From Acidobacteriota bacterium (GTDB lineage: Bacteria > Acidobacteriota > Thermoanaerobaculia > UBA5066): DNA of 64,000 nt. The notes beneath the pieces were generated by a model. It saw only the letters and a list, made by a program, of their open reading frames with translations, was not told the origin of the DNA and ran no database searches. The stretch's first letter is position 1; each line of letters starts with the position of its first letter. The stretch covers positions 29,097-93,096 of the forward strand of contig DAIOUV010000001.1 in the NCBI GenBank assembly GCA_036759345.1. The letters run 5' to 3'. Both the position numbers and the translations under genes were made by a program. Shown here piece after piece: positions 38,284 through 51,681 of the stretch.

Positions 38284-40179
38284 TCAATCTGTCGGCGGGT
38301 CTCCCCGGCGTTCGGCCTCCAAGGCGAGGTCGATGAGCGCGTCGGCGAGGCGGGTGGCTCCTAAGGAATCCTCGCCGAGAGCCTCCGCGAAACGCGCGCG
38401 CACGCTCGCCTCGCGGGCCTCGTCGCGGATCGGGCGGCCCGAGGATTTCTTCACGGCGCCCACGAGGCGCGCGAGGTCGAGTCTGCGCGCGGCGAGCCGC
38501 GCGATGTCGCTGTCCACGCCGTCGATCGCGCGCCGGATCCTCTCCACCGAACCGCTCGCGCCGGGCAGGATTCCGAACTCGTCGAGGAGCTCCTCGAGGT
38601 CCTCGGGCAGAAGCGCCTGAGGCCCGTCGGAGAGCGCGGATTCGGGGGCATCGTGGACTTCGATCATGAGCCCGTCCACGCCCGCGCCCCACGCCGCGCG
38701 CGCGAGGCCCGGCACGAGATCGCGACGGCCCGCGGCGTGCGACGGATCCGCGAAGAGCGGGAGATGCGTGAGGGAGCGCGCGACCAGGAGGCCTCCGAGA
38801 TCGAGGGTGCCACGCGTCGCCTTCTCGAACGTGCGGATGCCGCGCTCGCACAGGATCACGTTCTTACAGCCCGCGTCGAGGAGGTACTCGGCCGAGGAAA
38901 GCCACTCTTCGACGGTCGTACCGAACCCGCGCTTCAGGAAGACGGGCCGCCCGCTCGCGCCCGCTTCCTTCAAGAGGTCGTAGTTCTGACAATTCCGGGC
39001 GCCGATCTGCAGCACGTCCGCGCGCGCGCCGACCGGACCGACCTGCGCGGGCGCCATGACCTCGGTCACGATGGGAAGACCGACCGCGTCGCCCGCCTCC
39101 TTCAGCCAGCCGAGGGCATCGAGGCCGTGTCCCTGAAACGAGTACGGCGACGTGCGGGGCTTGAAGACGCCGCCACGGAGAGCCGTGGCGCCCGCACGTG
39201 CGACGGCCCGCGCGAGGCGAAGGATCTGCTCGGGCGATTCGACGGCGCACGGGCCCGCGATCACGGCGCGCCGGCCGCCGCCGACGACGAAAGGCCCTAC
39301 GGCGACGACGCTCGGCTCGCGCACCTCGGTCACCTTCGGGATTTCCTTCATCCGCGGCGGGCGCACGAGCTCCGGGGCGGGCCCGAGCCACCGCACGCGC
39401 TCGCCCGCGGCGAGGCGTGCCGTTCCCGCGACCGCCCGGGCGACGCTTTTCTCGGGCACGACGGCGAACCCGCGCACCGGTTCCGCCGGCGTGCCCGGCA
39501 GCGAGAGCAGTTCCGCTTCGGCCTCGGCCAGAGCCGACGAAGCCCGGACTCCCGCGTAGAAGACCACGCGCGGCGCGAGGGACTCGGGCTCGGCCGCCCG
39601 GTCGAGCCGCCAGAAACGTGTCGCATTCGGGCGCACGTCCGAGACGTCCTCTTCGAGGATCAGGAGGCCCGCCTCGAGCGCCGCCTCCTCCGAGCACACA
39701 GCCGCCCGCGCCCCGCCGGCTTCCTTCACGCGGAACGCCGCATAGGCGGTGTCGTGCGTCTCGATCGGAATCGCGTCCAGGCGCGCGAGGAGATCGCGGC
39801 ACTGTCTAAGCGCCGCGGCCTGCGAGTGGACCTCACGTACGTCTTCGAGCGCAAGGCCCGGGGGAGCCGCGAGAACGAGCCTCACGGGCACCTCGATCTC
39901 CGCCCCGACGGTGACCCGTGACTCGGGTTGGGCGAGCGACCGGGCGAGCGCGTCGAGCGACTCGAGGATCGGCCCCTCGACGCGGTTCACCGCCGGCAGC
40001 ACCGCGCAGGCGATCTCTCCGGCGAGGAGCGCGCGCAGCATGCGCTCGAAGGTGGGGAAGGCGACCGGGCGGCCGCACCGCGCCGCCGCGCGGGCTCCGA
40101 ACGATCCCGGCTGCCCCTGATAGCCCGCGAGGACCGGCTCGTGCGTCGTCCCCCGTTCTTCCTCTTCGATCTCCGGCAT
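38284..40179 (-). CDS. Triple fusion: prephenate dehydratase-like / class I-beta DAHP synthase / chorismate mutase (AroQ)
   Basis: N-terminal GYQGQPGSF...NATRFW; middle [38 protein letters not shown]; C-terminal [27 protein letters not shown]. Confidence 0.88.
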
Positions 40180-40195
40180 GTCGTTCCGAAGCCCC

Positions 40196-41044
40196 CTACG
40201 GCCGCGAGGCGTCTGCCCGCGTCGAGGTCGGCTGTTTCGTGACCTTGGCGTCTTCCAGGACGACGGGGTACTGATAGCCCGCGCCGAAGTCCTTGTCGAC
40301 GTGAACGACGCCCTTCACGACCACGACGTCGCCGACGGCCGCCGGATCGCCGGTCGTCACCGTCAGGTCGTCGTCCTTCTTCTCGCGCGAGCCCGAACCG
40401 TCACGGATGTGGTACCAGTTCCGGCCCATGATCCCCGTGTTCGCCTTCACGACCTTGCCGCGCACCGTCACGGTCTTGTCTTTCAGTTGGGCGCGCTCGG
40501 CGAAGACCTGCGCCACCGTGCGCGCGTCCTTCCCTTCGGCCTTCGGGACCTTGACGTCTCCGGCGTCCGCCGGCCCGCCCGCTGCTGCGGCGTGCGGCGC
40601 GGCCATCGGCGCGCCCTTCGCTGCTTCGGCCGCGGCGCCGTGCGCCGAGATGGGCGCCGGAGGCGCGCCCGCCTTTCCGTCCCCGAGGCTGCCGAACACG
40701 ATGCGGTCGAACTTCCGGTTCAGCGTCTTGCTTTCGAAGCCGTCCATCGACATCGCGTTCACGACCGTGACGCTGTCGCCCTTCTTGACGTTCGCCTTCG
40801 TGATGGCGGCCCACGTTTCGCCGCCGCCTTCCGTCCTGAGGCGCATGTACGTGTAGTCGGAGGCGTCGAGCGTCTCCTCCACGATGCCCGCGACGCTCGT
40901 GAGGGCCGGCTGGGGCGCCTGAGGAACGGCGGCAGCCGCGGAAGCCGAGGACGTGGGAGCGGACGGGGCCGCGGCGGGAGCCGCGGGCTTCTGGCCGCAT
41001 GCGGCGGTGAGGGCGAGCGCGAGGACGAGAACGGTTCGGCGCAT
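40196..41044 (-). CDS. Lipoprotein with two OB-fold-like domains (NrfJ-like)
   Basis: Lipobox LTAA|C, then YTYMRL..ETWAA and [29 protein letters not shown] motifs. Confidence 0.65.
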
Positions 41045-41091
41045 GGATGAGGTTCTCCTTCTTTCGAGCCCCCAATCTTGACAGAAGAACG

Positions 41092-41119
41092 AAAAAAGGC
41101 CGCCCGGGGAGGGCGGCCT
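41092..41119 (-). terminator. Rho-independent terminator ending the redox/GcvH-like operon
   Basis: Minus strand GGCCGCCC-TCCC-GGGCGGCC followed by TTTTTT. Confidence 0.8.
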
Positions 41120-41148
41120 TCGGATTCCGCGCCGCGGACCATCGGGGC

Positions 41149-41862
41149 TCAGGTCTCGAGGAAGGACGAAACGGCCAGTCGCCACTTTTCCTCGGACAGG
41201 AGAACCGACGGCGGCAGGATGAGTTCGCCGCCGTCCGCCGCGGCGAGCCCGAGCTCGCCCTCGAAAAAGCGCGAGAGACGCGCCTCCTCGCCGCGGAACC
41301 ACGCGTGTGCCTTGGGGCCGATCGGGAAGCTGCGATACGCCTCCGACGCCGGACGTACCGTGAACAGCCACCCCTTTTCGTACGGAGACGAACGGAGGAG
41401 TGTCGGGTGATTCCCGACGCGCGCGTTCACGGCCACGATCGTCCCGGTCACTGGAGCCGGAATGACGGCCGTGCGGGCGCCGCAGGCGATCGTCACGACG
41501 GGACGGCCGGCGGCGACCGTGCTGCCGGGCAGCGGCAGGGCGACGGCCGTGACGCCGTGCATGAGGTGCCCGGCGAGATCGTCGAGGCCCACGCGCAGGC
41601 GGCCGCCGCGCTCTTCGTCGAGCCACGTGTGCGCGGGCGCGTAGCGCCGGTTCTCGGCCAGGAGGAGCCCCTCGACTTCCACGAGTCCGAGGCGGCGCGC
41701 CCTCAGCCACCTGAAGGTGAGCTCCGCCGCGTGGTAGATCCCCCAGGCCGCGAGGACCGGCACGAGGGCGACGGCAACGAAGGCAACGAGAAGGAGGAGC
41801 CGGACGAGGAGGCCGACCATGAAGATGGCGGCTCCCGTAAGCAGCGCGAGGAGGGTTTCCAT
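41149..41862 (-). CDS. Membrane-anchored GcvH-like protein B, lipoyl lysine absent
   Basis: Long N-terminal hydrophobic segment; YAPAHTW, VGLDD, PAPVTGTIVAVN and PYEKGWLF motifs. The ESVK position reads ACGA. Confidence 0.85.
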   Translation of the reverse strand: METLLALLTGAAIFMVGLLVRLLLLVAFVAVALVPVLAAWGIYHAAELTFRWLRARRLGLVEVEGLLLAENRRYAPAHTWLDEERGGRLRVGLDDLAGHLMHGVTAVALPLPGSTVAAGRPVVTIACGARTAVIPAPVTGTIVAVNARVGNHPTLLRSSPYEKGWLFTVRPASEAYRSFPIGPKAHAWFRGEEARLSRFFEGELGLAAADGGELILPPSVLLSEEKWRLAVSSFLET

Positions 41863-41867
41863 GATGC

Positions 41868-42218
41868 TCACCTTTCTTTCGGTACCGCGTGACACGTCGC
41901 GCAGTCCTCGAATCCGTGGGCGCTCTTGCCGTCGTGGCATTTCCCGCACGCGGCGCCCTTTTCCATGTCGGCGTGCTTGAGCGTGCGGGCCGCGCGGGCC
42001 GCGGACGGAGGCAGGATGGAGAAGAGCGCCGGATGGCACGGCGTGCAGTCCGGCTTCGTCCCGTCGACGTGGGCCAGGTGGCGGAAGGTCACGACGCCCG
42101 GGCTGCCGTCTCCCTGAGGAAGAGGACGGTCCTTCGGAAGGCGGGGGAGACCGGTCGCGAGAACCGTGGCGGTCAACCCGAGCGTCAGGAGAAGGGCCGA
42201 CAGGTGGAGGTGTTTCAT
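41868..42218 (-). CDS. Triheme cytochrome c7-type protein
   Basis: Sec signal peptide; VTFRHLAH, CTPCH, LKHADM, CGKCH and CATCH motifs. Confidence 0.9.
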   Translation of the reverse strand: MKHLHLSALLLTLGLTATVLATGLPRLPKDRPLPQGDGSPGVVTFRHLAHVDGTKPDCTPCHPALFSILPPSAARAARTLKHADMEKGAACGKCHDGKSAHGFEDCATCHAVPKER

Positions 42219-42228
42219 GACGGCCGCC

Positions 42229-42894
42229 TCACTCTCCGCCCAGGAATCGGCGGGCCAGTTCGTCCCAGTGGTCCGGGTCGAGGGCTCGGGCGATGCCGTG
42301 GACCGGGGTGCCGCCATCTTGCAGGACCACTCCGAGTTGAGGCGTGAGGCGCTGGGCGAGCTTCCCCGCCGCGGCGTCCAGGAATCGGCGGGCGGCCTCG
42401 CCCGTGAAGAGGTTCTTGAGGTTGCCGGTCAGCCAGCGGGGCTCGACTTTCATGAGCCAGCCGGCGCCGTACGGGTCGCGGAGCGCATCGGCGGGATGCG
42501 CCCGCGCCGCTTCGTTCACCGCGACGACGTGGCCGTCGATCGGCGAGAGCACGTCGAGCCGCTGGCCTCCGGCCACGAGGGAGAAGGCCTTCTGTCCCTG
42601 CCGCACCGGCGCTCCGATCGGGGGCAGAAGGAGCTGGTCCAGGGGTCCCACGAGCTTGTGCGCGAAGTCGTCGAGGCCGACTTCCACCGTTCCCCCCTCG
42701 GGCCGCGCCCACGCGTGGCCGGCGTGCAGGTGGACGCCGTTCGGAACCTGGAACCAGCCGAAGCCGAAGGCGTGGACGGGCGCCTCCCCCTGGACGAAGC
42801 GCCAGAAAGGAATGAAGAGGAGCAGGTAGGAGATCGCGAGGCCGTACTCGAGGGCCCTCGCGGTATAGGGACTCAGGAGGGTGTGTTCGTTCAT
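42229..42894 (-). CDS. Membrane-anchored GcvH-like protein A, lipoyl lysine absent
   Basis: TM LEYGLAISYLLLFIPFWRF; HAGHAWA, VGLDDFA, SPIDGHVVAVN and DPYGAGWL motifs. The ESVK position reads VAGG. Confidence 0.85.
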   Translation of the reverse strand: MNEHTLLSPYTARALEYGLAISYLLLFIPFWRFVQGEAPVHAFGFGWFQVPNGVHLHAGHAWARPEGGTVEVGLDDFAHKLVGPLDQLLLPPIGAPVRQGQKAFSLVAGGQRLDVLSPIDGHVVAVNEAARAHPADALRDPYGAGWLMKVEPRWLTGNLKNLFTGEAARRFLDAAAGKLAQRLTPQLGVVLQDGGTPVHGIARALDPDHWDELARRFLGGE

Positions 42895-42922
42895 GGCTGT
42901 CTCTCTTCCTTCTCTCTACTTC

Positions 42923-44152
42923 TCAATGCGCGCCGCGCCAGTCGGGGTGCTCGTGGACCACGGGCATGCGGTTCACGATCCAGCGGAAGATCAGGACGCC
43001 GATCGTCACGATCGTGAGCGACGTGACGACCTCACCCATGCTCGGGACGTAGCGGTCTTGGACGTTCCAGTTGAACGCGATGAGCGAGACGTTGAAGCGG
43101 TTGAGGACGACGCCGAGGACCGTGAGGAGACCGGCGAGCCGGGCCAGCCGCGCGTTCTGACGCCGCGCCGCGAATGCGAAGAGGAGCGACGGCAGGAGGA
43201 TGAAGCCCAGCATCTCGAGGAGGTACCAGGCCCCCCAACCGGTCGCGAGGAGGTCGAAACGGCCGCTCGCGACGAGGCCCTGCAGCCGGATGAAGAAGTA
43301 CGCGAAGAGGACGACCGCGCCGCCCTTCGCGAGCCCGAGCGTGATCTTGTCGAGATCGACCGGGGCCAGAGGGTCCAGCCGGTCATGGAAAGCGCGATGC
43401 GAAAGCGCGCTCTCGACGATCACCATGCCGATGCCCGCCGAAATGCTCGAGACGAAGAAGAAGATCGGGAGGAATGGCGAGTACCAGAGAGGGTGGAGCT
43501 TGCCCGGCGTCATCAGGAAGAAGGCGCCGAGGGAGGACTGGTGGAGCGTCGAGAGCGTGACGCCGAGGACGATGATGCCGATCGTCAAAGAGCCGAGGAG
43601 ACGGCGCACTTTCACGAGGCCGAGCCATTCGAGCGCGGCCGGCGCGAACTCGAGAGCGAGGACCATCAGGTACAGGAAGACGCACCAGCCGACCTCGTAC
43701 ATGACGGCGGTCGTGCCGGGCGTCAGGAAGAACTGATAGGGGAGGCGCCACGGCTGGCCAAGGTCCACGATGAGCCCGAACAGGACGAGGGCGTAGCCGA
43801 GGAAGCCGGTCAGGATCGCGGGGCGCAGGATCGGCCGGTAGGCCTTCTGGCCGAAGATGTAGACGGCGCAGGCGACCGTGTAGCCGCCCGCCGCGAGCGC
43901 GACGCCGCAGATGACGTCGAAGGCGACCCAGATGCCCCATGCGTTCGTCTGGGACAGGTTCGTCGCCGCGCCGAGCCCTTTCCAGAAGCGGAAAGCCATC
44001 GTCGGGATTCCGGCGAGGAGGATCGCCGCCGCGATCGCGTTGGCCGGCGTCAGGAGGCTTTTCGCGTATTCGCGGAAGGACATCCCGAGGAAGACGTTCT
44101 CCCTCATCCAGGGGCCCCCGAGGAACGCGGGTTTCAGCGCCTGCTCAGACAT
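42923..44152 (-). CDS. NrfD/PsrC-family polytopic membrane protein (HybB/HmcC-like)
   Basis: WGIWVAFDVICGVALAAGG, RPAILTGFLGY, DLGQPWR, YEVGWC, STLHQSSLG, KLHPLW and NRFNV motifs. Confidence 0.9.
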   Translation of the reverse strand: MSEQALKPAFLGGPWMRENVFLGMSFREYAKSLLTPANAIAAAILLAGIPTMAFRFWKGLGAATNLSQTNAWGIWVAFDVICGVALAAGGYTVACAVYIFGQKAYRPILRPAILTGFLGYALVLFGLIVDLGQPWRLPYQFFLTPGTTAVMYEVGWCVFLYLMVLALEFAPAALEWLGLVKVRRLLGSLTIGIIVLGVTLSTLHQSSLGAFFLMTPGKLHPLWYSPFLPIFFFVSSISAGIGMVIVESALSHRAFHDRLDPLAPVDLDKITLGLAKGGAVVLFAYFFIRLQGLVASGRFDLLATGWGAWYLLEMLGFILLPSLLFAFAARRQNARLARLAGLLTVLGVVLNRFNVSLIAFNWNVQDRYVPSMGEVVTSLTIVTIGVLIFRWIVNRMPVVHEHPDWRGAH

Positions 44153-45056
44153 GGCCTTCCTCCTGCTTTCCGTTGCCTTCCGCCGCCGCGACTTCGTCGC
44201 GGCGCTTGCTGAAGGTGTACATGCCCATCAGGAGCGGCGGCCAGAGGGTGATGATGAAGGGCACCGCCGAGAGCGCACCGTCGGCGAGCTCCGGATACGA
44301 CTTCTTCTCGATGCCGGCGGGAAGCGCGAGCGACTCGAACGGCACGTCGGAGATGTAGAGCCAGCTCGTGCCTCCGGCTTCGTTTTCTCCGTAGATCTCG
44401 TGGACGTACTTGTCGGGGTTCGTGTAGATCCGCGTCCTGGCCTCCTCGAGGAGGTCGGCGCGTCTGCCGAACTTAAGAGCGCCCGACGGGCAGACCTCGG
44501 TGCAGGCCGGCGCGAGACCCTTGCCCTGGCGCTCCGCGCAGAAGGTGCACTTCTTGACGAGCGGCGTCGCGCTCGAGAACTCGTACTTCGGAACTCCGAA
44601 GGGGCACACGATCATGCAGTAGCGGCAGCCAAGACAGCGGTCCGCGTGGTACACGACCGGCCCTTCGGGCGTCTTCTCGAGGGCCTTGACGACGCAGCCC
44701 GAAGCGCAGGCCGGCGTCACGCAGTGCATGCACTGCGTCTTGGCATAGCGGTCGTCGCCGCTCGCGCTCTTGCGTTCGCCCTTCTGGACGACCGTGTAGG
44801 CCGTGGGGCTCGTCGTGCGCTTCGACGCGAACACGGAGTCGTCCCCGGGTTTCTCGGGGCCCAGGAGCGCGTTCGCCTCGGCGCAGGCGGCCTCGCAGCC
44901 GCGGCAACCGACGCAGCGCGTCGTGTCCACGAGGACGCCCCGGGCGTCCTTCGACGCGGGCAGGACCGAGGCCCGCGACGTCGCCGCCGCGCCGGCTACT
45001 CCGGCGGTTCCGGCGGCGGCGGCGAGCTTGAAGAGAGACCGGCGATTCAGCTTCAT
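44145..45056 (-). CDS. Tat-exported 4x[4Fe-4S] protein with C-terminal membrane anchor (HybA/HmcB-like)
   Basis: NRRSLFK twin-arginine signal; CVGCRGCEAAC, CMHCVTPACASGC, CLGCRYCMIVC and CTFC..PACTEVC; C-terminal hydrophobic helix. Confidence 0.92.
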   Translation of the reverse strand: MKLNRRSLFKLAAAAGTAGVAGAAATSRASVLPASKDARGVLVDTTRCVGCRGCEAACAEANALLGPEKPGDDSVFASKRTTSPTAYTVVQKGERKSASGDDRYAKTQCMHCVTPACASGCVVKALEKTPEGPVVYHADRCLGCRYCMIVCPFGVPKYEFSSATPLVKKCTFCAERQGKGLAPACTEVCPSGALKFGRRADLLEEARTRIYTNPDKYVHEIYGENEAGGTSWLYISDVPFESLALPAGIEKKSYPELADGALSAVPFIITLWPPLLMGMYTFSKRRDEVAAAEGNGKQEEGHV

Positions 45057-45067
45057 CGCGGCCTCTC

Positions 45068-45154
45068 TCAGGCCCGGGCCGCGCGGCCGAGCGCGCGGTC
45101 GTTGAGGAGGAGGAGAAGAACGAAGAGGAGCGCGAGGGGAACCGTGGCGATCAT
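45068..45154 (-). CDS. 28-aa single-pass membrane peptide MIATVPLALLFVLLLLLNDRALGRAARA
   Basis: GGAGG RBS, ATGA overlap with the upstream stop, hydrophobic core with basic tail; ends 11 nt before the Fe-S gene start. Confidence 0.6.
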   Translation of the reverse strand: MIATVPLALLFVLLLLLNDRALGRAARA

Positions 45155-45390
45155 GGGGCCTCCCTCCCGGAGCCGTTCGCCGCCACGGCGGGCGGCTCCG
45201 TGTACGCGGCGCCCGTCCCGAGCCTCTTCACGGCCTCCTGATAGAGGGGGCAGTCCCCGTACCGGTTCGCCTGGCAGGGCCGGACCGACACGAGGTGGTC
45301 AAGAGGCAGCATCTTTTTCGTCGGGCAGGCGTCGCAATAAAGCATCACGACTTCTTTGAGCAGCGGGCAGGTGGTCGAGGTCTCTCGCAT
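45151..45390 (-). CDS. 79-aa Cys-rich protein
   Basis: MRETSTTCPLLKEVVMLYCDACPTKKMLP...PCQANRYGDCPLY has 5 Cys. It is the first ORF after the sigma54 promoter. Confidence 0.7.
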   Translation of the reverse strand: MRETSTTCPLLKEVVMLYCDACPTKKMLPLDHLVSVRPCQANRYGDCPLYQEAVKRLGTGAAYTEPPAVAANGSGREAP

Positions 45391-45406
45391 GGCGACTCGT
45401 CTAAGC

Positions 45407-45421
45407 GCAAGGCCCGCGCCA
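45407..45421 (-). promoter_or_regulatory. sigma54 (-24/-12) promoter
   Basis: Minus strand TGGCGCG-GGCC-TTGC, one mismatch from TGGCACG-N4-TTGC. It lies directly downstream of a sigma54 activator gene. Confidence 0.85.
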
Positions 45422-45449
45422 TCCGCCGGCGGTTCGGCGAACAAGGTGT

Positions 45450-45534
45450 CAACTGCTTGTTGCGAGGAGACTTGGGCCGCTTCCGTTCCGCCGCCCGCGC
45501 GGCCGGGAGCGTTCAGATCCTCAACGGAGTGTTG
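45450..45534. promoter_or_regulatory. Two CAAC-N5-GTTG palindromes, candidate upstream activator sites
   Basis: CAACTGCTTGTTG at 45450-45462 and CAACGGAGTGTTG at 45522-45534, 72 bp apart. Confidence 0.55.
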
Positions 45535-45550
45535 TCTTTCTCACCGCTCC

Positions 45551-46921
45551 CTAGTCGGGCTCGAAAACGCCGTCGTCCGCGCGTTTCAGCCCGAATTTGT
45601 GGATCTTGCTGTAGAGGGTCACGCGGTCGATGTCGAGGATCCGCGCCGCCTGCGAGACGTTTCCACCCGTGTTCCTAAGCACCGCGGCGATGTGCTGCCG
45701 TTCGATCTCGGCGAGCGAGGCGGGATGCGACGGGATTTCCTCCCCGCGAAGGGTGAGGCCCAGATCGCCCGGCAGGAGGAGCGGCCCCGTCGAAACGACG
45801 ACGCCTCGCTCGAGGACGTTGCGCAGTTCGCGCACGTTGCCCGGCCACGAGTGGGCGAGGAGAAGCGCCATGCCCTCGGGCGACACGCCCTCGACCGGCT
45901 TCTTCATTTCCACGGCGAGCTGCTCGAGCAGGATGTCGACGAGAAGGGGGATGTCCTCCTTGCGGTCGCGGAGCGGAGCGAGCGTGAGCGTGATGACGTT
46001 CAGCCGATAGAAGAGATCCTCCCGGAAGCGGCCCTCGGCAATGGCCTTCTGAAGGTCCCGGTTCGTCGCCGCGATGATGCGGACGTCCACCGGTATCGAT
46101 TCCGTCCCGCCAACGCGCGTCACCCGGCGCTCCTCGAGGACGCGCAGGAGGTCGAGCTGCAGCTTCGGGCTGATGTCGCCGATCTCGTCGAGGAAGAGGG
46201 TGCCGCCGCTCGCCGCCACGAACTTGCCCTCGCGGCGCCCGTTGGCGCCCGTGAAGGAGCCCTTTTCGTAGCCGAAGAGCTCGGATTCGAGAAGCGTCTC
46301 GGTGAGGGACGCGCACGACATCGCCACGAAGGGTTTGTCGTGGCGCGGGCTCTCGGCATGGATGGCGCGGGCGAGAAGCTCCTTGCCCGTGCCGCTCTCG
46401 CCGAGGACGAGGATCGTCGAGGGGCTGCGCGCGGCGGTCCGCGCGAGCTCGAGCGTGCCCTGCATGGCCGACGACTTCGTGACGAGGTCGTGGAACCGGT
46501 ACTCGCGTTTGAGCGCCTTGCGGAGGATCACGTTCTCCCTCACGAGCGCCTGCTGCGCCACGATCTTCTCCACCAGGAGGCTGACCTCCTCCGGGTCGAA
46601 GGGCTTCACGATGTAGTCGAACGCCCCGAGCTTCATGGCGTTCACCGCGGTGTCGACGGTGGCGTACGCCGTCATGATCACGACGGCGGTCTCGGGGCTC
46701 TTCTCCTTGACGCGCTTGAGCACTTCGAGGCCGTCGATGCCCGGCATCTTGAGGTCGACGAGGAGGATCGACCAGCGCCCCTCCTCCACGGCCTTCACGC
46801 CCGCGAGGCCGTCCGGCGCCGTGCCGATCGTGTAGCCGTCCTTCTCGAGCCAGCCCGAGAGGGACTCCCGCACGATCTCCTCGTCATCGACCAGCAGGAT
46901 CCGCGTGTTCTTCTTGCTCAT
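45551..46921 (-). CDS. sigma54-dependent response regulator (NtrC/AtoC type)
   Basis: Receiver (LLVDD, VDLKMP), GESGTGKE, GSFTGA, LFLDEI, WPGNVREL and Fis-type HTH. Confidence 0.96.
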   Translation of the reverse strand: MSKKNTRILLVDDEEIVRESLSGWLEKDGYTIGTAPDGLAGVKAVEEGRWSILLVDLKMPGIDGLEVLKRVKEKSPETAVVIMTAYATVDTAVNAMKLGAFDYIVKPFDPEEVSLLVEKIVAQQALVRENVILRKALKREYRFHDLVTKSSAMQGTLELARTAARSPSTILVLGESGTGKELLARAIHAESPRHDKPFVAMSCASLTETLLESELFGYEKGSFTGANGRREGKFVAASGGTLFLDEIGDISPKLQLDLLRVLEERRVTRVGGTESIPVDVRIIAATNRDLQKAIAEGRFREDLFYRLNVITLTLAPLRDRKEDIPLLVDILLEQLAVEMKKPVEGVSPEGMALLLAHSWPGNVRELRNVLERGVVVSTGPLLLPGDLGLTLRGEEIPSHPASLAEIERQHIAAVLRNTGGNVSQAARILDIDRVTLYSKIHKFGLKRADDGVFEPD

Positions 46922-47468
46922 GGGGTTCTCCGATCTCGTCGACGTTCTCGAGGAAGAGGGCCCGGCACGTCTCGCAGAGGTCCGGCTGCTTGGCGTCCAC
47001 GTCCCGAAGGCTCGCCGAGCGCGCCATCGCGCAGCGGGGGCGGAGGCAGTGAAGGAGCCCGAACGTGTGCCCGAGCTCGTGGATGACTTCGGTCCGGAGG
47101 CGGATCGGGAGCCGGGCCGCCTCGCCGGGAAGCCCCGCGCCGACAAGGCGCGCGGTCGACACGACGGCGGCAGGGCCCTTGAGCTGCGCCTCGCCAAAGA
47201 CGAACGTCAAGACCGGGATGAAGAGGTCCGCGTCCGTCAGGCCGATCAGGCGCGCGGCGCCGCGCGGCCGGTTCGCCGCGAGCCACAGGAGGATGCGACG
47301 GGAGGAATGCTGTTTGCGCCGCGCGTCGTACGCCTCGTCCGGCCGGGTCGCGGGGACGTCGAGGCGCACCGGCAAGCGGAAGACTTTCTGCACGTGAGCG
47401 CGCACGCCTGCGAGAAGCTCCGGGTCGATGTTTCCCGTCCCGATCCACCACAGGGCGACCTCGCTCAC
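46884..47468 (-). CDS. Archaemetzincin-family Zn metalloprotease
   Basis: LFIPVLTFVFGEAQL, VVSTARL and HELGHTFGLLHC-x4-C-x-M...CETC motifs. The GTG start overlaps the kinase stop. Confidence 0.9.
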   Translation of the reverse strand: MSEVALWWIGTGNIDPELLAGVRAHVQKVFRLPVRLDVPATRPDEAYDARRKQHSSRRILLWLAANRPRGAARLIGLTDADLFIPVLTFVFGEAQLKGPAAVVSTARLVGAGLPGEAARLPIRLRTEVIHELGHTFGLLHCLRPRCAMARSASLRDVDAKQPDLCETCRALFLENVDEIGEPHEQEEHADPAGR

Positions 47469-49147
47469 GTGCCCGCGGTCGGCCCGGCGACCGCGGGGGC
47501 CGCCGAGGCCGCGCCGCCCTCGGCGGCGAGGGGGAGCCGGAGCGTCATCGTCGTACCCTGCCCGGCGCTGCTCGTAACCCGCATCGAGCCGCCGTGCTTT
47601 TCCACGATGCCGTAGACGACGGAGAGCCCGAGCCCGGTGCCTTTCTCCTTCGTCGTGAAGAACGGGTCGAAGATGCGCGAGAGAAGATCGGGCGCAATTC
47701 CGGCGCCCGTGTCGGTGACACCGATGTCGACCTCGCGACTGCCGGAGAAGAAGTGGGAGGTGAGCGTCAGGGTGCCGCCGGCGGGCATCGCGTCGCACGC
47801 GTTCAAGAGGATGTTCATGAACGCCTGCCGGAGCTGCCCGAAATCGGCGTTCACCTGACCCGTGCCCTCGAATCTCCTGACGACCGTGATGCCCTGGATC
47901 TGCATCTTGTGCGCCGCGAGCGAGAGCGCCTCCTCGAGCGCGCGCACCGGGTCGAAGACTTTCAGCTCCAGCGGCCTGACCCGCGCGAAGTCGAGGAGGT
48001 TCCTCACGATGACGGTGCAGCGCTCGGACTCCCTCTGGATGAGCGACAGGTTCTTGAGGCACGCCGCGCGCGTCGCGTCGTCCGGCGGGCCGGTCTCCAG
48101 CATCCGGATCATGAGCCGCGCGAACGTGAGGATCCCCGCGAGGGGATTGTTGATCTCGTGCGCGATGGAGGCCGAGAGCTGGCCGAGCGAGGCCAGCTTC
48201 TCGCTGCGGGCGAGGACCTCGTGAGCGCTTCGGAGCGCCGCCGTGCGGTCCTCCACCTGACGTTCGAGATCGTTCGTGAGGTGCTCGAGGTCGCGGCGCG
48301 TCCGGGCGAGCGACGCGTTCATCTCGTTGAACGAGTTCGCCAGGATTCCGAGCTCGTCCGACGAGCGGACGGCGAGCGTCGCCGACAGGTCGCCGTGGCC
48401 GACGCGCTGCGTGGCCTCCACGAGCTCCGCCACGGGGCGAAAGACGATGCGGCGCGCCGCGGCACTGACGAGAGCGGCGAGAACGATCACCGCGCCGAGC
48501 GCGCCGCCCGCCATGCGCAGGGACTGCCTGTGCAGGCTCGCGTCGATCTCCTTCAGCGAAATGCCGATGTCGACGACGCCGAGGACGTGCTTTTCGGGCG
48601 GGTGAGCGTGGCAGGCGGCCGTCGAGCAGGCAGGCTCGTTGTAGATGGGCGTCACCATGCCCAGCACGCGGTGGCCGTTCGTGCGGAACAGGCGGCTGCG
48701 CGCGGACGTCGTGGGCGCCACGATCGGCTGGCCCGCCGCGTGGCACGCCGTGCAGGCCTCGGCATCCTTGTCGACCGACGCGCCGATGTCGCGCGCGTTC
48801 GTCGAGAACATGATGCGGCCTTCCTTGTTCAGGACGCGGACCTTCTCGATGCCCTCGAGGCGGCCGATGCTCTCCATGATCCGGTACGCGTCGTGCCGCT
48901 GGTCCTCGAGCATGAGATCCCGCGTGCTGCTCGCGATCGTGCTCGAGAAAAGCGCGGCCCCGCGGATGACCTCTCCGATGGAATGCTCCCTCTGGGAGCG
49001 GATCGAGAGAAACGCGAACAGCGCAATCGTCGCGAGCGAGACCGCCGCCGCGGCGCCCGTCAGCTTGAAACCCAGATGCCGGTGGAACGGGATGCCGAAC
49101 ACGGCTTCCTCCAGCCTGAGCATCCGGCAACCCGGGGGACAGTCCAT
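47465..49147 (-). CDS. Sensor histidine kinase with periplasmic heme-c-motif sensor, HAMP, HisKA and HATPase domains (start 49147 or 49123)
   Basis: Two TMs flanking CTACH (48740-48754) and CSTAACH (48608-48628); AHEINNPL H-box; DTGAGI, FDPFFTTK and GTGLGL boxes. Confidence 0.93.
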   Translation of the reverse strand: MDCPPGCRMLRLEEAVFGIPFHRHLGFKLTGAAAAVSLATIALFAFLSIRSQREHSIGEVIRGAALFSSTIASSTRDLMLEDQRHDAYRIMESIGRLEGIEKVRVLNKEGRIMFSTNARDIGASVDKDAEACTACHAAGQPIVAPTTSARSRLFRTNGHRVLGMVTPIYNEPACSTAACHAHPPEKHVLGVVDIGISLKEIDASLHRQSLRMAGGALGAVIVLAALVSAAARRIVFRPVAELVEATQRVGHGDLSATLAVRSSDELGILANSFNEMNASLARTRRDLEHLTNDLERQVEDRTAALRSAHEVLARSEKLASLGQLSASIAHEINNPLAGILTFARLMIRMLETGPPDDATRAACLKNLSLIQRESERCTVIVRNLLDFARVRPLELKVFDPVRALEEALSLAAHKMQIQGITVVRRFEGTGQVNADFGQLRQAFMNILLNACDAMPAGGTLTLTSHFFSGSREVDIGVTDTGAGIAPDLLSRIFDPFFTTKEKGTGLGLSVVYGIVEKHGGSMRVTSSAGQGTTMTLRLPLAAEGGAASAAPAVAGPTAGT

Positions 49148-49208
49148 CCCCCATTTGAACTAGTGCGTCGCGGGAGGTCCGGAGTCCGATCCGGCCCGGT
49201 TTCGGGCC

Positions 49209-49571
49209 CTAGCCGTCGCTCCTGGAGATCAGGATCCACGAGAGAAGCGTCGACACGACCGAAATGATGAGCGCGCCGAGGAATGCCGGCACGAATCCGT
49301 CGACCGTGAATTCGATGCCGAGCCCGCGCCCCAGCCAGGCCGCCAGCATGAGCATCAGGGCGTTCACGACGAGCGTGAACAAACCCAGCGTGAGCAGTAT
49401 GATCGGGCAGCTCACGAGCTTCAGGAAAGGACGCACGAAGGCGTTCACCAAGCCGAAGACGAGCGCGAGCGCCAGGATGGAGCCGATCCCGCCCGCATGA
49501 ATGCCGGGCACGAACGAAGCCGCGACCCAGAGCGCGGCGGCGTTGATGAGAATACGCAGGATGATCTTCAT
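49209..49571 (-). CDS. Four-TM YvlD / 'phage holin family' membrane protein
   Basis: FGLVNAFVRPFLKLVSCPIILLTLGLFTLVVNA...GFVPAFLGALIIS. Confidence 0.85.
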   Translation of the reverse strand: MKIILRILINAAALWVAASFVPGIHAGGIGSILALALVFGLVNAFVRPFLKLVSCPIILLTLGLFTLVVNALMLMLAAWLGRGLGIEFTVDGFVPAFLGALIISVVSTLLSWILISRSDG

Positions 49572-49645
49572 GTCGCGAACCTCGGCAAGCATTCTAGTTT
49601 GAGGACGGTGCGGGTGCGACGCGCCGAAGACGGGAAAAAGGACAG

Positions 49646-50077
49646 ATGACCGAACAGAAGTACCGCCAGCGCGGATACAAGGACGCGGAACGGTCCGGGA
49701 GCGGGAGCGGCTTCGGCCCTTCGGGCCCCCCTCGAGGCGAGAGGATCGGTCCGAAGGGCCGCGGCGCCGACCGCAACCGGGCCGAGGTCTTCCGGTGCAA
49801 GACCTGCAGCGAGAAGAACGACCCGGAGGTCGGACCCGAGTCCGTCTGCAAGAAGTGCGGCGCCGCGCTCCACGCGTGCGCGCAGTGCCGGTACTTCGAC
49901 GGCGCCGCGCCCATGCAGTGCCGGCAGGAGATTCCCGCGCTCATCCCCGCGAAATCGAAGGCGAACGCCTGCACGTTCTACGCACCCACCGTGTCGCTCG
50001 ATCTCACCGGCGCGAAAGCCGCCGACTCGCCGGACGGCGCCCGCTCGGCGTTCGACCAGCTCTTCGGAAAGCGCTGA
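49646..50077 (+). CDS. Hypothetical Cys-rich (probable multi-Zn) protein
   Basis: KYRQRGY N-terminus, CKTC, CKKC, CAQC, plus C..ANACTFY; ends FDQLFGK. Confidence 0.7.
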   Translation: MTEQKYRQRGYKDAERSGSGSGFGPSGPPRGERIGPKGRGADRNRAEVFRCKTCSEKNDPEVGPESVCKKCGAALHACAQCRYFDGAAPMQCRQEIPALIPAKSKANACTFYAPTVSLDLTGAKAADSPDGARSAFDQLFGKR

Positions 50078-50082
50078 GGGGC

Positions 50083-51681
50083 GTGCCGGCCGCGCCGCCT
50101 GGACCCGCCTCCGCCCGCGGCGCCGCACCTTTTGGCGCCGTTCTCGGCCTCGGCGCCGCGGCCTATCTCGGCCTGCACGCCCTTGCGGCCGGACGCGTGC
50201 CGCCGGGCGTCGCCGCGGATCCCGTGATCGAGGCGTTGCGCGGACTCCGCCTCGTCCTTCTCCGCCGCTTCGAGGTCCTCACCGTCGCAATCGGCCCCTC
50301 GGCCGAGACGCTCTGGCTCTACGTGACGGGCGCCTCCGTGGCCGCTCTCGGCCCCACGCGGACCGCCTTGCTCGTCCCGAGCATCCTCGCGGCGACCGCC
50401 ACGCTCGTCCTCGTCGCGGCCCTCCTCCGGCGCATCCGGCCGGAGCTACCGATCGGCATCGCGCTCCTCGTTCCCGCCTCGTCCCTCTGGCTCTTCCATT
50501 CCGGCGAGGTCGGGCTCCGCGCGAGCGCGGCCCCTCTCGTTCTCCTCGGCGCGTGTTTCCTGCTCGACGACCGTGCCGAGCGGGGCGTCGCGGACCGGCC
50601 TCTCGCGGCCGGCGCCCTCCTCGGACTGGGCGTCTATGCGTACTCGGCCTGCCGCCTCCTCCCGATCGTCTGGGTGCTGCATTTCGCACTACGCTGGCGC
50701 CGCACGCCTGCCGCGCGGCCCGCGCTGCGCCGCGAGGCCAAGCGCCTGCTCCTCGGCTTCACGCTCGTCTCGATCCCGAATCTCCTCTTCCTCCTCCGCG
50801 CGCCCGGCCTGCTTCTCGACCGCGGCTACTACGTGTCGCGCGGCACGCTTCTCGACAAGCTCGGGAACGTCCTCGCGACGTTCCTCCTTCCGTTCATCTA
50901 CCCCGACCGCTATCGCGTCTGGATCGGTCCGGGTCACGTCTTCGACGCGACGGGCGTCGCGCTGACGGCGAGCGGTCTCGATCCGTTCGACCTCGTCGCC
51001 GGGCCGCTCGCCGTCCTCGGCCTCCTCGCGTGGCGGCGCGGAAAGGAACCCGCATCCCTGTCCTTTCTCTTCGTGACGTGGGCCGCCGGCGGCGTGCTCC
51101 TCGGCCTCTACGGCCCCAGCCTCACGCGACTTCTCATCCTGCTGCCCGCGTGGCTCGTCTTCGCCGCTCTCGGGTGCGACGCCCTTCTCGCGCGCGCGCC
51201 GCGGCTCAAGGTGCCGCTCGCCGCCCTCCTCGTTCTCTCGCTCTGTCTTCAGGCCCGCGCGTGGGTCTATACGTTCGGGCGGTCCGAGAGCGCGGTCTCG
51301 TACTTCCACGAAGCGGCCACTGCGATGGCCGAGCGAGCGCGGGATCTGACGAGAGACGGCAAGCGCGTGATCGTCGTGTCGCGCAACGGGCGAGACGTTT
51401 TCAAGTACTTCTGCTGGCAGCGCATCGAGCAGGTCTTCCACGCCGCGATGCCGAAGGGGACGCCGCGTGGCGACGACGTTCCGGTCGCCGGATTCGCGGC
51501 TGACGTCGTCCTCGTGGAGCACACGCCCGCGCTCGACGGGTGGGGCGCCGCGCTGGGGCTGCCCTCGCGCTCCTCACGGCCGTCACTCTTCGCGGAATAT
51601 GCGATCCGCCGCGCGAAGGGTGCGCCGCCTCCGTCCGTCCGAAGCAACCTCTGGCGCCTCTGGTCCCCGATGTCGCTCTAG
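50083..51681 (+). CDS. ArnT/PMT-like GT-C membrane glycosyltransferase
   Basis: Polytopic N-terminal half, LLGLGVYAYSACR motif, periplasmic C-terminal domain. The GTG start is approximate. Confidence 0.6.
   Translation: MPAAPPGPASARGAAPFGAVLGLGAAAYLGLHALAAGRVPPGVAADPVIEALRGLRLVLLRRFEVLTVAIGPSAETLWLYVTGASVAALGPTRTALLVPSILAATATLVLVAALLRRIRPELPIGIALLVPASSLWLFHSGEVGLRASAAPLVLLGACFLLDDRAERGVADRPLAAGALLGLGVYAYSACRLLPIVWVLHFALRWRRTPAARPALRREAKRLLLGFTLVSIPNLLFLLRAPGLLLDRGYYVSRGTLLDKLGNVLATFLLPFIYPDRYRVWIGPGHVFDATGVALTASGLDPFDLVAGPLAVLGLLAWRRGKEPASLSFLFVTWAAGGVLLGLYGPSLTRLLILLPAWLVFAALGCDALLARAPRLKVPLAALLVLSLCLQARAWVYTFGRSESAVSYFHEAATAMAERARDLTRDGKRVIVVSRNGRDVFKYFCWQRIEQVFHAAMPKGTPRGDDVPVAGFAADVVLVEHTPALDGWGAALGLPSRSSRPSLFAEYAIRRAKGAPPPSVRSNLWRLWSPMSL

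Follow-up and report, generated by a model that had tools for sequence, protein, structure and literature searches.

The window analysed here is a stretch of 64,000 nucleotides (nt) from an Acidobacteriota bacterium (Thermoanaerobaculia; UBA5066), corresponding to positions 29,097 to 93,096 of contig DAIOUV010000001.1. On its minus strand, three genes with overlapping reading frames follow each other: a sensor histidine kinase of 560 amino acids (aa; 47465..49147), an archaemetzincin of 194 aa with a GTG start (46884..47468; peptidase family M54, hereafter AMZ) and an NtrC/AtoC-type sigma-54 response regulator of 456 aa (45551..46921). We propose that AMZ is functionally coupled to this two-component module, which we consider very probable. 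Further, we suggest that AMZ might act on the signalling proteins themselves, modulating the regulator or the kinase by proteolysis, and we assign a probability of roughly 0.4 to this reading.

The three genes are interlocked at both of their junctions. The stop codon of the kinase (TGA, 47467..47465) and the start codon of AMZ (GTG, 47468..47466) share the four nucleotides GTGA (47465..47468, minus strand). The 3´ end of AMZ, with the stop codon at 46886..46884, then overlaps the 5´ end of the regulator, which starts with ATG at 46921..46919, by 38 nt (46884..46921, minus strand), and the presumed Shine-Dalgarno sequence of the regulator, GGAGAA (46926..46931, minus strand), is located within the coding sequence of AMZ. 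Sequence scans of the window locus found no promoter or terminator between kinase, AMZ and regulator. Overlapping frames and the absence of predicted promoters and terminators between the genes point to co-transcription of all three, and the overlaps of 4 and 38 nt suggest that AMZ is translationally coupled to both the kinase and the regulator. The start codon of AMZ is backed by homologues, which have their first residue at the same place and show the 4-nt overlap as well.

By its sequence and predicted fold, AMZ is a genuine archaemetzincin with all the characters of the family. The motif HELGHTFGLLH-C-x4-C-x-M-x16-C-x2-C (46965..47081, minus strand) comprises the active site and the second metal site and reads, in protein numbering, H130-E-L-G-H134-T-F-G137-L-L-H140-C141-x4-C146-A-M148-x16-C165-x2-C168. 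It thus holds the extended zinc motif HExxHxxGxxH of M54 peptidases with E131 as the catalytic Glu, the four cysteines of the Cys4 site (C141, C146, C165 and C168) and the Met-turn at M148. In an alignment of 50 sequences H130, E131, H134, H140, C141, C146, M148, C165 and C168 are invariant. The sequence is recognized by Pfam PF07998 (62.2 bits, cut-off 24.4, E 8e-17) and, narrowly above the cut-off of 145, by NCBIfam NF033823 'archmetzin' (148.6 bits, E 1.6e-43). It also matches AmzA of Methanopyrus kandleri (2X7M) with E 5e-24, and alignment of the two gives the same M-x16-C spacing. The AlphaFold model (pLDDT 87, pTM 0.85) has the three-layer alpha/beta/alpha fold of archaemetzincins and superimposes on 2X7M with template modelling (TM) scores of 0.79/0.84; its top matches in the PDB are 2X7M, 3ZVS, 3LMC and 4AXQ (E 1e-14 to 1e-16, TM 0.72-0.89). 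No signal peptide is apparent by inspection or in the model, in which residues 3-8 form the first core beta-strand and so leave no room for one, and AMZ is predicted to be cytoplasmic. Among close relatives the dN/dS of the AMZ core is 0.28-0.37, which indicates purifying selection. The catalytic site is intact as judged from the sequence, and we infer from it that AMZ is proteolytically active in vivo. The first-pass annotation of this DNA had already reported both overlaps, the HELGHTFGLLH and Cys4 motifs and the lack of a signal peptide, and all of these are borne out; its statement that archaemetzincins have solved structures and no clear physiological substrate agrees with the literature we examined.

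The kinase consists of a transmembrane helix, a periplasmic domain of about 160 aa, a second transmembrane helix and the domains HAMP (49.4 bits), HisKA (47.7 bits) and HATPase_c (93.4 bits) as detected by Pfam, which qualifies it as a histidine kinase. The nearest NCBIfam models are AtoS/ZraS, and it scores below their cut-offs. Its periplasmic domain has no significant match in Pfam, where Cache-like and MCP-sensor models appear below threshold only. In the alignment this domain carries two c-haem motifs, C132-x2-C135-H136 and C174-x4-C179-H180 (48608..48754, minus strand). Both motifs are found in 64 of the 66 aligned kinases from AMZ-linked loci, and the remaining two are gapped there. The kinase is thus probably a periplasmic c-haem sensor of redox state or of a ligand, if the motifs bind haem as their sequence suggests. 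The regulator has the composition of an NtrC-class protein, with a receiver domain (REC; Response_reg, 107 bits), an AAA+ domain (Sigma54_activat, 235 bits), the lid AAA_lid_14 and a Fis-type helix-turn-helix (HTH_8, 51 bits); its GAFTGA-type loop reads GSFTGA. Phosphotransfer from this kinase to this regulator would be expected from the adjacency of their genes. Just upstream of the kinase lies a gene for a Phage_holin_4_2 (PF04020) membrane protein (49209-49592, minus strand), which is followed by a GGCCCG-AAAC-CGGGCC hairpin. This gene adjoins the cluster only in the closest relatives (Thermoanaerobaculia) and is found elsewhere in the cluster in loci L002 and L004.

Alternatively, AMZ might act mainly by binding, as a Cys4 partner that responds to zinc or to thiol redox state and restrains the regulator or the kinase like the anti-activators NifL and PspA; the periplasmic haem signal would then be joined by an input from the cytoplasm. 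Such a role would fit its co-translation with both signalling proteins. Further, non-catalytic descendants of archaemetzincins do exist: the 'non-proteolytic archaemetzincin-like protein' family of Myxococcota (NF033824) is homologous to AMZ over its full length, and P0207 among the collected proteins has HQLGH in place of HELGH and has thereby lost the catalytic Glu, which makes it a candidate non-proteolytic variant. Membership of AMZ itself in NF033824 was rejected, because its 94.8 bits fall far short of the cut-off (250) and its catalytic motif is intact. The motif HExxH...H is moreover retained in 268 of the 270 proteins collected, where P0207 and one truncated fragment are the only exceptions, and in all 84 locus-derived AMZ sequences, which keep the catalytic motif and the cysteines with minor changes at Gly or Met positions only. 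A Cys4-Zn redox switch had been offered as one option in the first-pass annotation, and we find no specific support for it: the Cys4 site is shared by the whole family, including archaeal enzymes with no link to two-component systems, and is regarded as structural, so it tells nothing particular about the two-component context. Consequently, we consider a mainly binding role improbable.

The strongest argument for coupling comes from comparison of genomes. With an alignment of diverse AMZ sequences as query, we searched bacterial and archaeal genomes, each species being represented by one. The scan confirmed 591 relatives; the counts given below refer to the best 80 of them, which have 36-92% identity and come from at least seven phyla, and neighbours were sought within 6 kb of AMZ using the window proteins and profiles built from the loci. 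AMZ directly adjoins the sigma-54 regulator in 75 of the 80 loci, and kinase and regulator were both found in 75/80 as well. The order kinase-AMZ-regulator is present in 44 loci and the order (kinase)-regulator-AMZ in 31; in two more (L033, L040) AMZ belongs to the same cluster without being adjacent, and in three there is neither a kinase nor a regulator within 6 kb. The order AMZ-kinase-regulator was never seen among the 80 loci. Three look-ups that started from a GcvH-like protein of the regulated operon (see below) all led to the triplet again, in the same lineages and among others in Anaeromyxobacter sp. K. The carriers are Acidobacteriota of several classes, Anaeromyxobacter (Myxococcota), Gemmatimonadota, Bacteroidota, Ignavibacteriota, Zixibacteria and several orders of Desulfobacterota/Thermodesulfobacteriota, including Geobacteraceae and Syntrophales.

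The overlaps are conserved together with the order. Close relatives with 77%, 61% and 59% AMZ identity possess an identical nine-gene cluster with the same overlaps of 4 and 38 nt. Across the genome loci the kinase/AMZ spacing is mostly -4; this overlap recurs in L001, L002 and L004 and in 19 of the 44 kinase-AMZ-regulator loci. The AMZ/regulator spacing is -38, -35, -8 or -4, and does not exceed +23 nt in nearly all loci of this order. Thus, AMZ has both marks of an accessory component, namely a place in the same operon with coupled frames and co-occurrence with the pair across distant taxa, and the depth of conservation of the triplet together with the overlapping frames makes functional coupling well supported. 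The first-pass annotation had asked for a count of such triplets and had named a lack of conserved placement, together with unchanged promoter output on deletion, as what would refute its idea of AMZ as a third component of the two-component system. Placement is conserved, and the coupling part of that idea stands; the further part, a proteolytic reset of the kinase or the regulator, is a hypothesis. The same annotation had overlooked the haem motifs of the kinase, the sigma-54 nature of the regulator with its promoter, and the order kinase-regulator-AMZ, which is almost as common as the one in the window.

A neighbour-joining tree of AMZ sequences adds a historical dimension. The linked genes are monophyletic, the three unlinked genes form the outgroup, and the two gene orders fall into separate subclades, with some phyla represented in both. 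The unlinked genes have the archaeal-type motif LNFVFGEA and are surrounded by housekeeping genes (TldD and FBPase; LiaF-like and UvrD; phosphoribosyltransferase and TatC). Beyond the module, the neighbouring genes change from one lineage to the next. Topology of the tree, with the unlinked outgroup and the orders as subclades, indicates a single ancient capture of AMZ into the operon and its long retention there, one rearrangement that kept the adjacency to the regulator, and spread of the entire block across phyla. To judge by these loci, the bacterial AMZ subclade is encoded almost exclusively within one particular two-component operon.

These observations bear on a further alternative, in which AMZ would serve the cytoplasm as a general peptidase or aminopeptidase lacking a partner of its own in the module, and its position would be an accident kept by inertia of the operon and by horizontal transfer of the block. 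Characterised archaemetzincins do degrade casein and synthetic or small peptides with no known specificity, the three unlinked bacterial genes sit among housekeeping genes as described, and a dN/dS of about 0.3 is not especially low. However, the linkage persists down to 36% identity and over at least seven phyla, while outside genes all differ, and adjacency of AMZ and regulator outlived an internal rearrangement. The overlapping frames have been maintained too. Accidental gene neighbours are normally not kept at such evolutionary depth, and we regard this explanation as highly improbable, the least credible of those considered here.

Several candidate features of the overlapping junctions were examined and rejected. 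The C-terminal tail of AMZ, HEQEEHADPAGR, might be taken for a functional motif. Instead, it is the N-terminus of the regulator, MSKKNTRILLVDD, read in another frame; the last 14 residues are disordered in the model (pLDDT below 50), and the tail is 100% identical at the nucleotide level in L005 and L007. An open reading frame of 756 aa (46884..49154, minus strand), in which the AMZ frame stays open across the kinase, is an alternative frame and an artefact of GC-rich DNA. Similarly, 'AMZ' frames of 631 and 664 aa in L013 and L019, two loci that lack the AMZ stop codon, are GC-rich open frames and not real proteins. Four database entries (P0022, P0127, P0182 and P0166) join the C-terminus of a kinase or of a regulator to AMZ. 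Their junctions consist of out-of-frame-looking filler or of single indels, and the joins most likely reflect a frameshift or read-through at the overlapping junction. If any of the four were real, it would be a natural fusion of kinase or regulator with AMZ.

The presumed target of the regulator lies downstream of its gene. A scan with a rough sigma-54 consensus, in which sites within 2.8 of the maximum score of 19.9 were accepted, was applied to both strands of positions 40000-50500 (10.5 kb). The sole site at this threshold, TGGCGCGGGCCTTGCG (45406..45421, minus strand), has the -24 GG and -12 GC elements at correct spacing and lies 15 nt before the next ATG. Predicted sites are found at the same position in related loci, as expected for a -24/-12 target promoter; they precede Cys4/HmcB genes in the group of Acidobacteriota and Anaeromyxobacter, and GcvH-like genes in more distant loci. 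A match was never located between regulator and AMZ in the related loci scanned. AMZ itself was considered as a sigma-54 target in those kinase-regulator-AMZ loci which have gaps of 65-336 nt, and this was rejected, as no site reaches the threshold there. Expression of AMZ thus appears to go with that of the sensors, and AMZ does not look like an induced product.

Six genes follow the promoter on the minus strand. The first encodes a protein of 79 aa (45151..45390) with four cysteines (C8, C19, C39 and C47) and the motif CP-x-LKE..x..C..P.KK..P.D...C...C, which we call the Cys4 mini-protein. It matched no family in Pfam or NCBIfam and represents an undescribed family. In some lineages its Cys4 module stands alone; in L040, L052, L059, L069 and L070 (for example, L059:8297-9007, L069:8302-9012, L040:6683-7666 and L070:1072-2034) it forms the N-terminal part of a fusion with a GcvH-like protein, and it is sometimes duplicated. 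In many kinase-regulator-AMZ loci its place is taken by a second Cys4 motif, CVWM..G..SYKLC....CE.C.FD. Then come a HmcB/HybA-like periplasmic 4Fe-4S protein with a Tat-type N-terminus (44145..45056; NCBIfam, Pfam Fer4_11) and an integral membrane, quinone-interacting subunit of the HmcC/NrfD family (42923..44152; NCBIfam, Pfam NrfD). The former scores 349.8 bits with HmcB (cut-off 420) and 242.6 bits with HybA, the latter 512.9 bits with HmcC (cut-off 550); with both scores below the cut-offs, status of HmcB and HmcC equivalogs was rejected and the proteins are related only.

The remaining genes of the operon encode a trihaem cytochrome c7-type protein of the periplasm (41868..42218; Pfam Cytochrome_C7; TIGR04257 59.3 bits, cut-off 40) and two proteins which resemble the H-protein of glycine cleavage (Pfam GCV_H). 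GcvH-like protein a (42229..42894) has an N-terminal transmembrane helix, the barrel of H-proteins and a C-terminal helical extension. Its model (pLDDT 86) places the helix at residues 9-34, gives TM 0.91 to H-proteins and has GG instead of K at the hairpin tip. GcvH-like protein b (41149..41862) begins with two hydrophobic helices followed by RWLRARR, and by the positive-inside rule its H-like domain is predicted to be cytoplasmic. The hairpin tips of the two proteins read A-G-G-Q and A-C-G-A with no Lys, and their scores are 67 and 72 bits against the GcvH cut-off of 117. With neither a lipoyl-lysine nor a sufficient score, the identity of glycine cleavage H-protein was rejected for both, and the public name 'glycine cleavage system protein H' is probably wrong for these GcvH-like proteins. 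The N-terminus of family members is either a transmembrane anchor or a Cys-rich module, of which there are at least three kinds (L030:1932-2801, L047:6613-7473 and others). The operon is closed by a predicted strong intrinsic terminator with an 11-bp stem and a T-run (41095..41121, minus strand).

Products of this operon are themselves conceivable substrates. AMZ could mature or turn over those that are cytoplasmic, i.e. the Cys4 mini-protein or the GcvH-like domains, for example by trimming of ends or by clearing of unassembled HmcBC-like subunits, and it would be encoded with the sensors in order to be ready at induction. In the profile search of the 80 loci a GcvH-like gene was found in 58, HmcC in 49, HmcB in 47 and the Cys4 module in 27, and at least one of these four in 65; of the remaining 15 loci, eight are on truncated contigs and three are the unlinked outgroup. 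By prediction, the Cys4 module and the GcvH-like domains reside in the cytoplasm, as AMZ does. A minimal block in Gemmatimonadota (L030) consists of five consecutive genes on the same strand, two GcvH-like, kinase, regulator and AMZ, and there is no HmcBC within 6 kb of it. Finally, the alignment of GcvH-like proteins has an invariant Q192-D193-G194-G195 in their C-terminal extension, and this DGG, about 30 residues from the C-terminus, would be a candidate cleavage site.

There are three aspects in which maturation fits less well. Firstly, AMZ is never inside the sigma-54-driven unit. Target genes are located upstream, downstream or on the other strand, and the position of AMZ tracks the regulator and not the targets. 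Secondly, the full-length loci L033, L037, L056 and L074 have the triplet and no GcvH-like, HmcC or Cys4 gene within 6 kb. Thirdly, what follows DGG does not look like a propeptide to be discarded, being conserved and forming packed helices in the model; cleavage at DGG that would expose a Gly-Gly end was for this reason set aside as a low-probability idea. We therefore look upon maturation of operon products as rather unlikely, although it is the most serious competitor. AMZ seems to share its expression with the sensors and stays with the regulator irrespective of where the targets are located, and for this reason a role in signalling is favoured.

A possible course of events with AMZ as modulator of the signalling proteins is as follows. 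The kinase, by means of its two periplasmic c-haem motifs, would sense redox state or a ligand, and the NtrC-type regulator would activate the sigma-54 promoter at 45421..45406. The induced operon would supply the Cys4 mini-protein, the HmcB/HmcC-like quinone-linked module, the trihaem c7 and the two non-lipoylated, membrane-anchored GcvH-like proteins. AMZ would be made with kinase and regulator, separately from the induced genes. Its substrate would be the sigma-54 regulator or, with lower likelihood, the cytoplasmic portion of the kinase, and such cleavage might set the threshold of the response or end it. Gene order conserved at such divergence is reportedly typical of physically interacting proteins (Dandekar et al. 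1998), and sigma-54 activators often have dedicated partners encoded alongside, as in NifL-NifA and PspA-PspF.

Several observations weigh against this proposal. AMZ evolves faster than the regulator (92% versus 97% and 61% versus 82% identity). In vitro, known archaemetzincins behave as peptidases without specificity or as aminopeptidases. Since the kinase possesses the common phosphatase-type motif H-E-x-x-N, simply switching off the regulator does not require a protease. The GcvH-like gene, present in 58 of the 80 loci and in most untruncated ones, accompanies AMZ almost as constantly as kinase and regulator do, which would suit maturation of operon products just as well, and the kinase-AMZ and regulator-AMZ fusions in databases are unusable as evidence of fusion. 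In a wider and still tentative formulation, which we hold with somewhat less confidence than the narrower one, the kinase, AMZ, the regulator and the non-lipoylated GcvH-like and Cys4 proteins would constitute an undescribed, horizontally mobile redox module of anaerobic and soil bacteria, in which the substrate of AMZ is one of the module proteins, be it the regulator, the kinase or a GcvH-like or Cys4 protein.

Among known archaemetzincins, archaeal AmzA (M. kandleri, 2X7M; Archaeoglobus fulgidus, 3ZVS/4AXQ), Thermococcus AMZ-tk and human AMZ1/AMZ2 have the fold (TM 0.79-0.89), HExxHxxGxxH, the Met-turn and the Cys4 site in common with AMZ, and like AMZ the known enzymes are cytoplasmic, of about 160-195 aa and devoid of a propeptide. 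Identity to them is only 28-35%, and the subclade of AMZ has its own motif, P-[IV]-L-[TS]-[FY]-V-[FY]-G-E-A-Q, where the archaeal-like form is L-N-F-V-F-G-E-A. No kinase/sigma-54-regulator context has been reported for characterised archaemetzincins, unlike for this subclade. In the literature searched, we found neither a zinc endopeptidase as a conserved third gene of a kinase/sigma-54-regulator operon, nor a paper that links archaemetzincins to two-component systems or describes this gene cluster.

Third proteins as such are well known in signalling operons. Co-encoded partners of this kind include NifL with NifA, PspA with PspF, LiaF with LiaSR and the metallo-hydrolase WalJ/YycJ in the walRK operon; they are often translationally coupled, conserved with the pair and expected to tune its output, as we suppose for AMZ. 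To our knowledge, none of NifL, PspA, LiaF and WalJ/YycJ is a metzincin protease. Proteolysis of regulators is also an established means to terminate or gate the output of a phosphorelay, for example that of CtrA by ClpXP with its adaptors. However, systems of the CtrA type employ general AAA+ proteases encoded elsewhere, whereas AMZ is a small, ATP-independent metalloprotease inside the operon.

On the side of the targets, the closest likeness by description is BccR-CbcBA of Geobacter sulfurreducens, where a sigma-54 response regulator induces an inner-membrane quinone oxidoreductase at low redox potential. Both systems combine an NtrC-type regulator and a -24/-12 promoter with a membrane cytochrome/quinone module for anaerobic respiration, and in Anaeromyxobacter sp. 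K a multihaem and b-type cytochrome pair of the CbcBA kind comes right after the AMZ module. The targets of the AMZ module are not CbcBA, and the paper on BccR-CbcBA mentions neither a protease nor a kinase. The operon in the window further resembles the Hmc, Qrc and HybAB modules of sulfate reducers and enterobacteria in its Tat-exported 4Fe-4S protein, NrfD-family subunit and small periplasmic multihaem cytochrome. It differs from Hmc by the absence of the large cytochrome HmcA and of cytoplasmic HmcEF; instead, it contains the GcvH-like pair and the Cys4 mini-protein.

Neighbourhoods of the module in other genomes give a similar picture. The cultured strain Anaeromyxobacter sp. K (L085; CP001131.1 2128278-2149000) carries the whole module, and directly downstream of it there are genes for an MtrC/MtrF-like multihaem cytochrome, a b-type cytochrome (Ni_hydr_CYTB), an M48/M56 peptidase and a second two-component system of the NarL type, an arrangement which recalls the CbcBA clusters near BccR-like regulators. 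In L086 (11423-13692) the module is flanked by a [FeFe]-hydrogenase-like protein and a 2Fe-2S thioredoxin-like protein, and in L087 (12831-20699) by FeoAB, a second NrfCD/cytochrome set and an MtrB/PioB porin. The latter neighbours would link the module to iron or to extracellular electron transfer, and the cytochrome, hydrogenase-like, MtrB/PioB and FeoAB genes together suggest that the module belongs to anaerobic electron transfer at the membrane. In Ignavibacteriales (L043:5406-10062) a perfect sigma-54 promoter, TGGCACGGCGCTTGCT, stands directly after AMZ and precedes genes for a hemerythrin-like protein, a GltD-like Fe-S oxidoreductase, a Rieske protein and cytochrome b. Given these genes, the same unit of kinase, regulator and AMZ may control different respiratory modules.

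Archaemetzincins occur in archaea, bacteria and vertebrates, including man (AMZ1 and AMZ2), and their crystal structures have been available since 2010, yet no physiological substrate or role has been reported for them. The association with kinase and regulator is apparently unreported and provides the first concrete functional context for the family. With the AMZ subclade fixed in one operon, the search for a substrate is narrowed to a handful of co-encoded proteins, and the cultured carriers Anaeromyxobacter sp. K and A. oryzae make the question directly testable. If a module protein is indeed the substrate, it would be the first natural substrate, and the first biological role, of any archaemetzincin. 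It would also mean a new wiring of two-component systems, in which an operon-encoded, ATP-independent metalloprotease forms an obligatory step of signalling. Besides the protease, the analysis delineates a widespread and so far uncharacterised regulatory and respiratory module composed of a predicted haem-sensing kinase, a sigma-54 activator, HmcBC-like subunits, c7 and GcvH-like proteins. The groups that carry it (Acidobacteriota, Myxococcota, Gemmatimonadota, Bacteroidota, Ignavibacteriota and Desulfobacterota) are of importance for anaerobic respiration and for metal cycling in soils and sediments.

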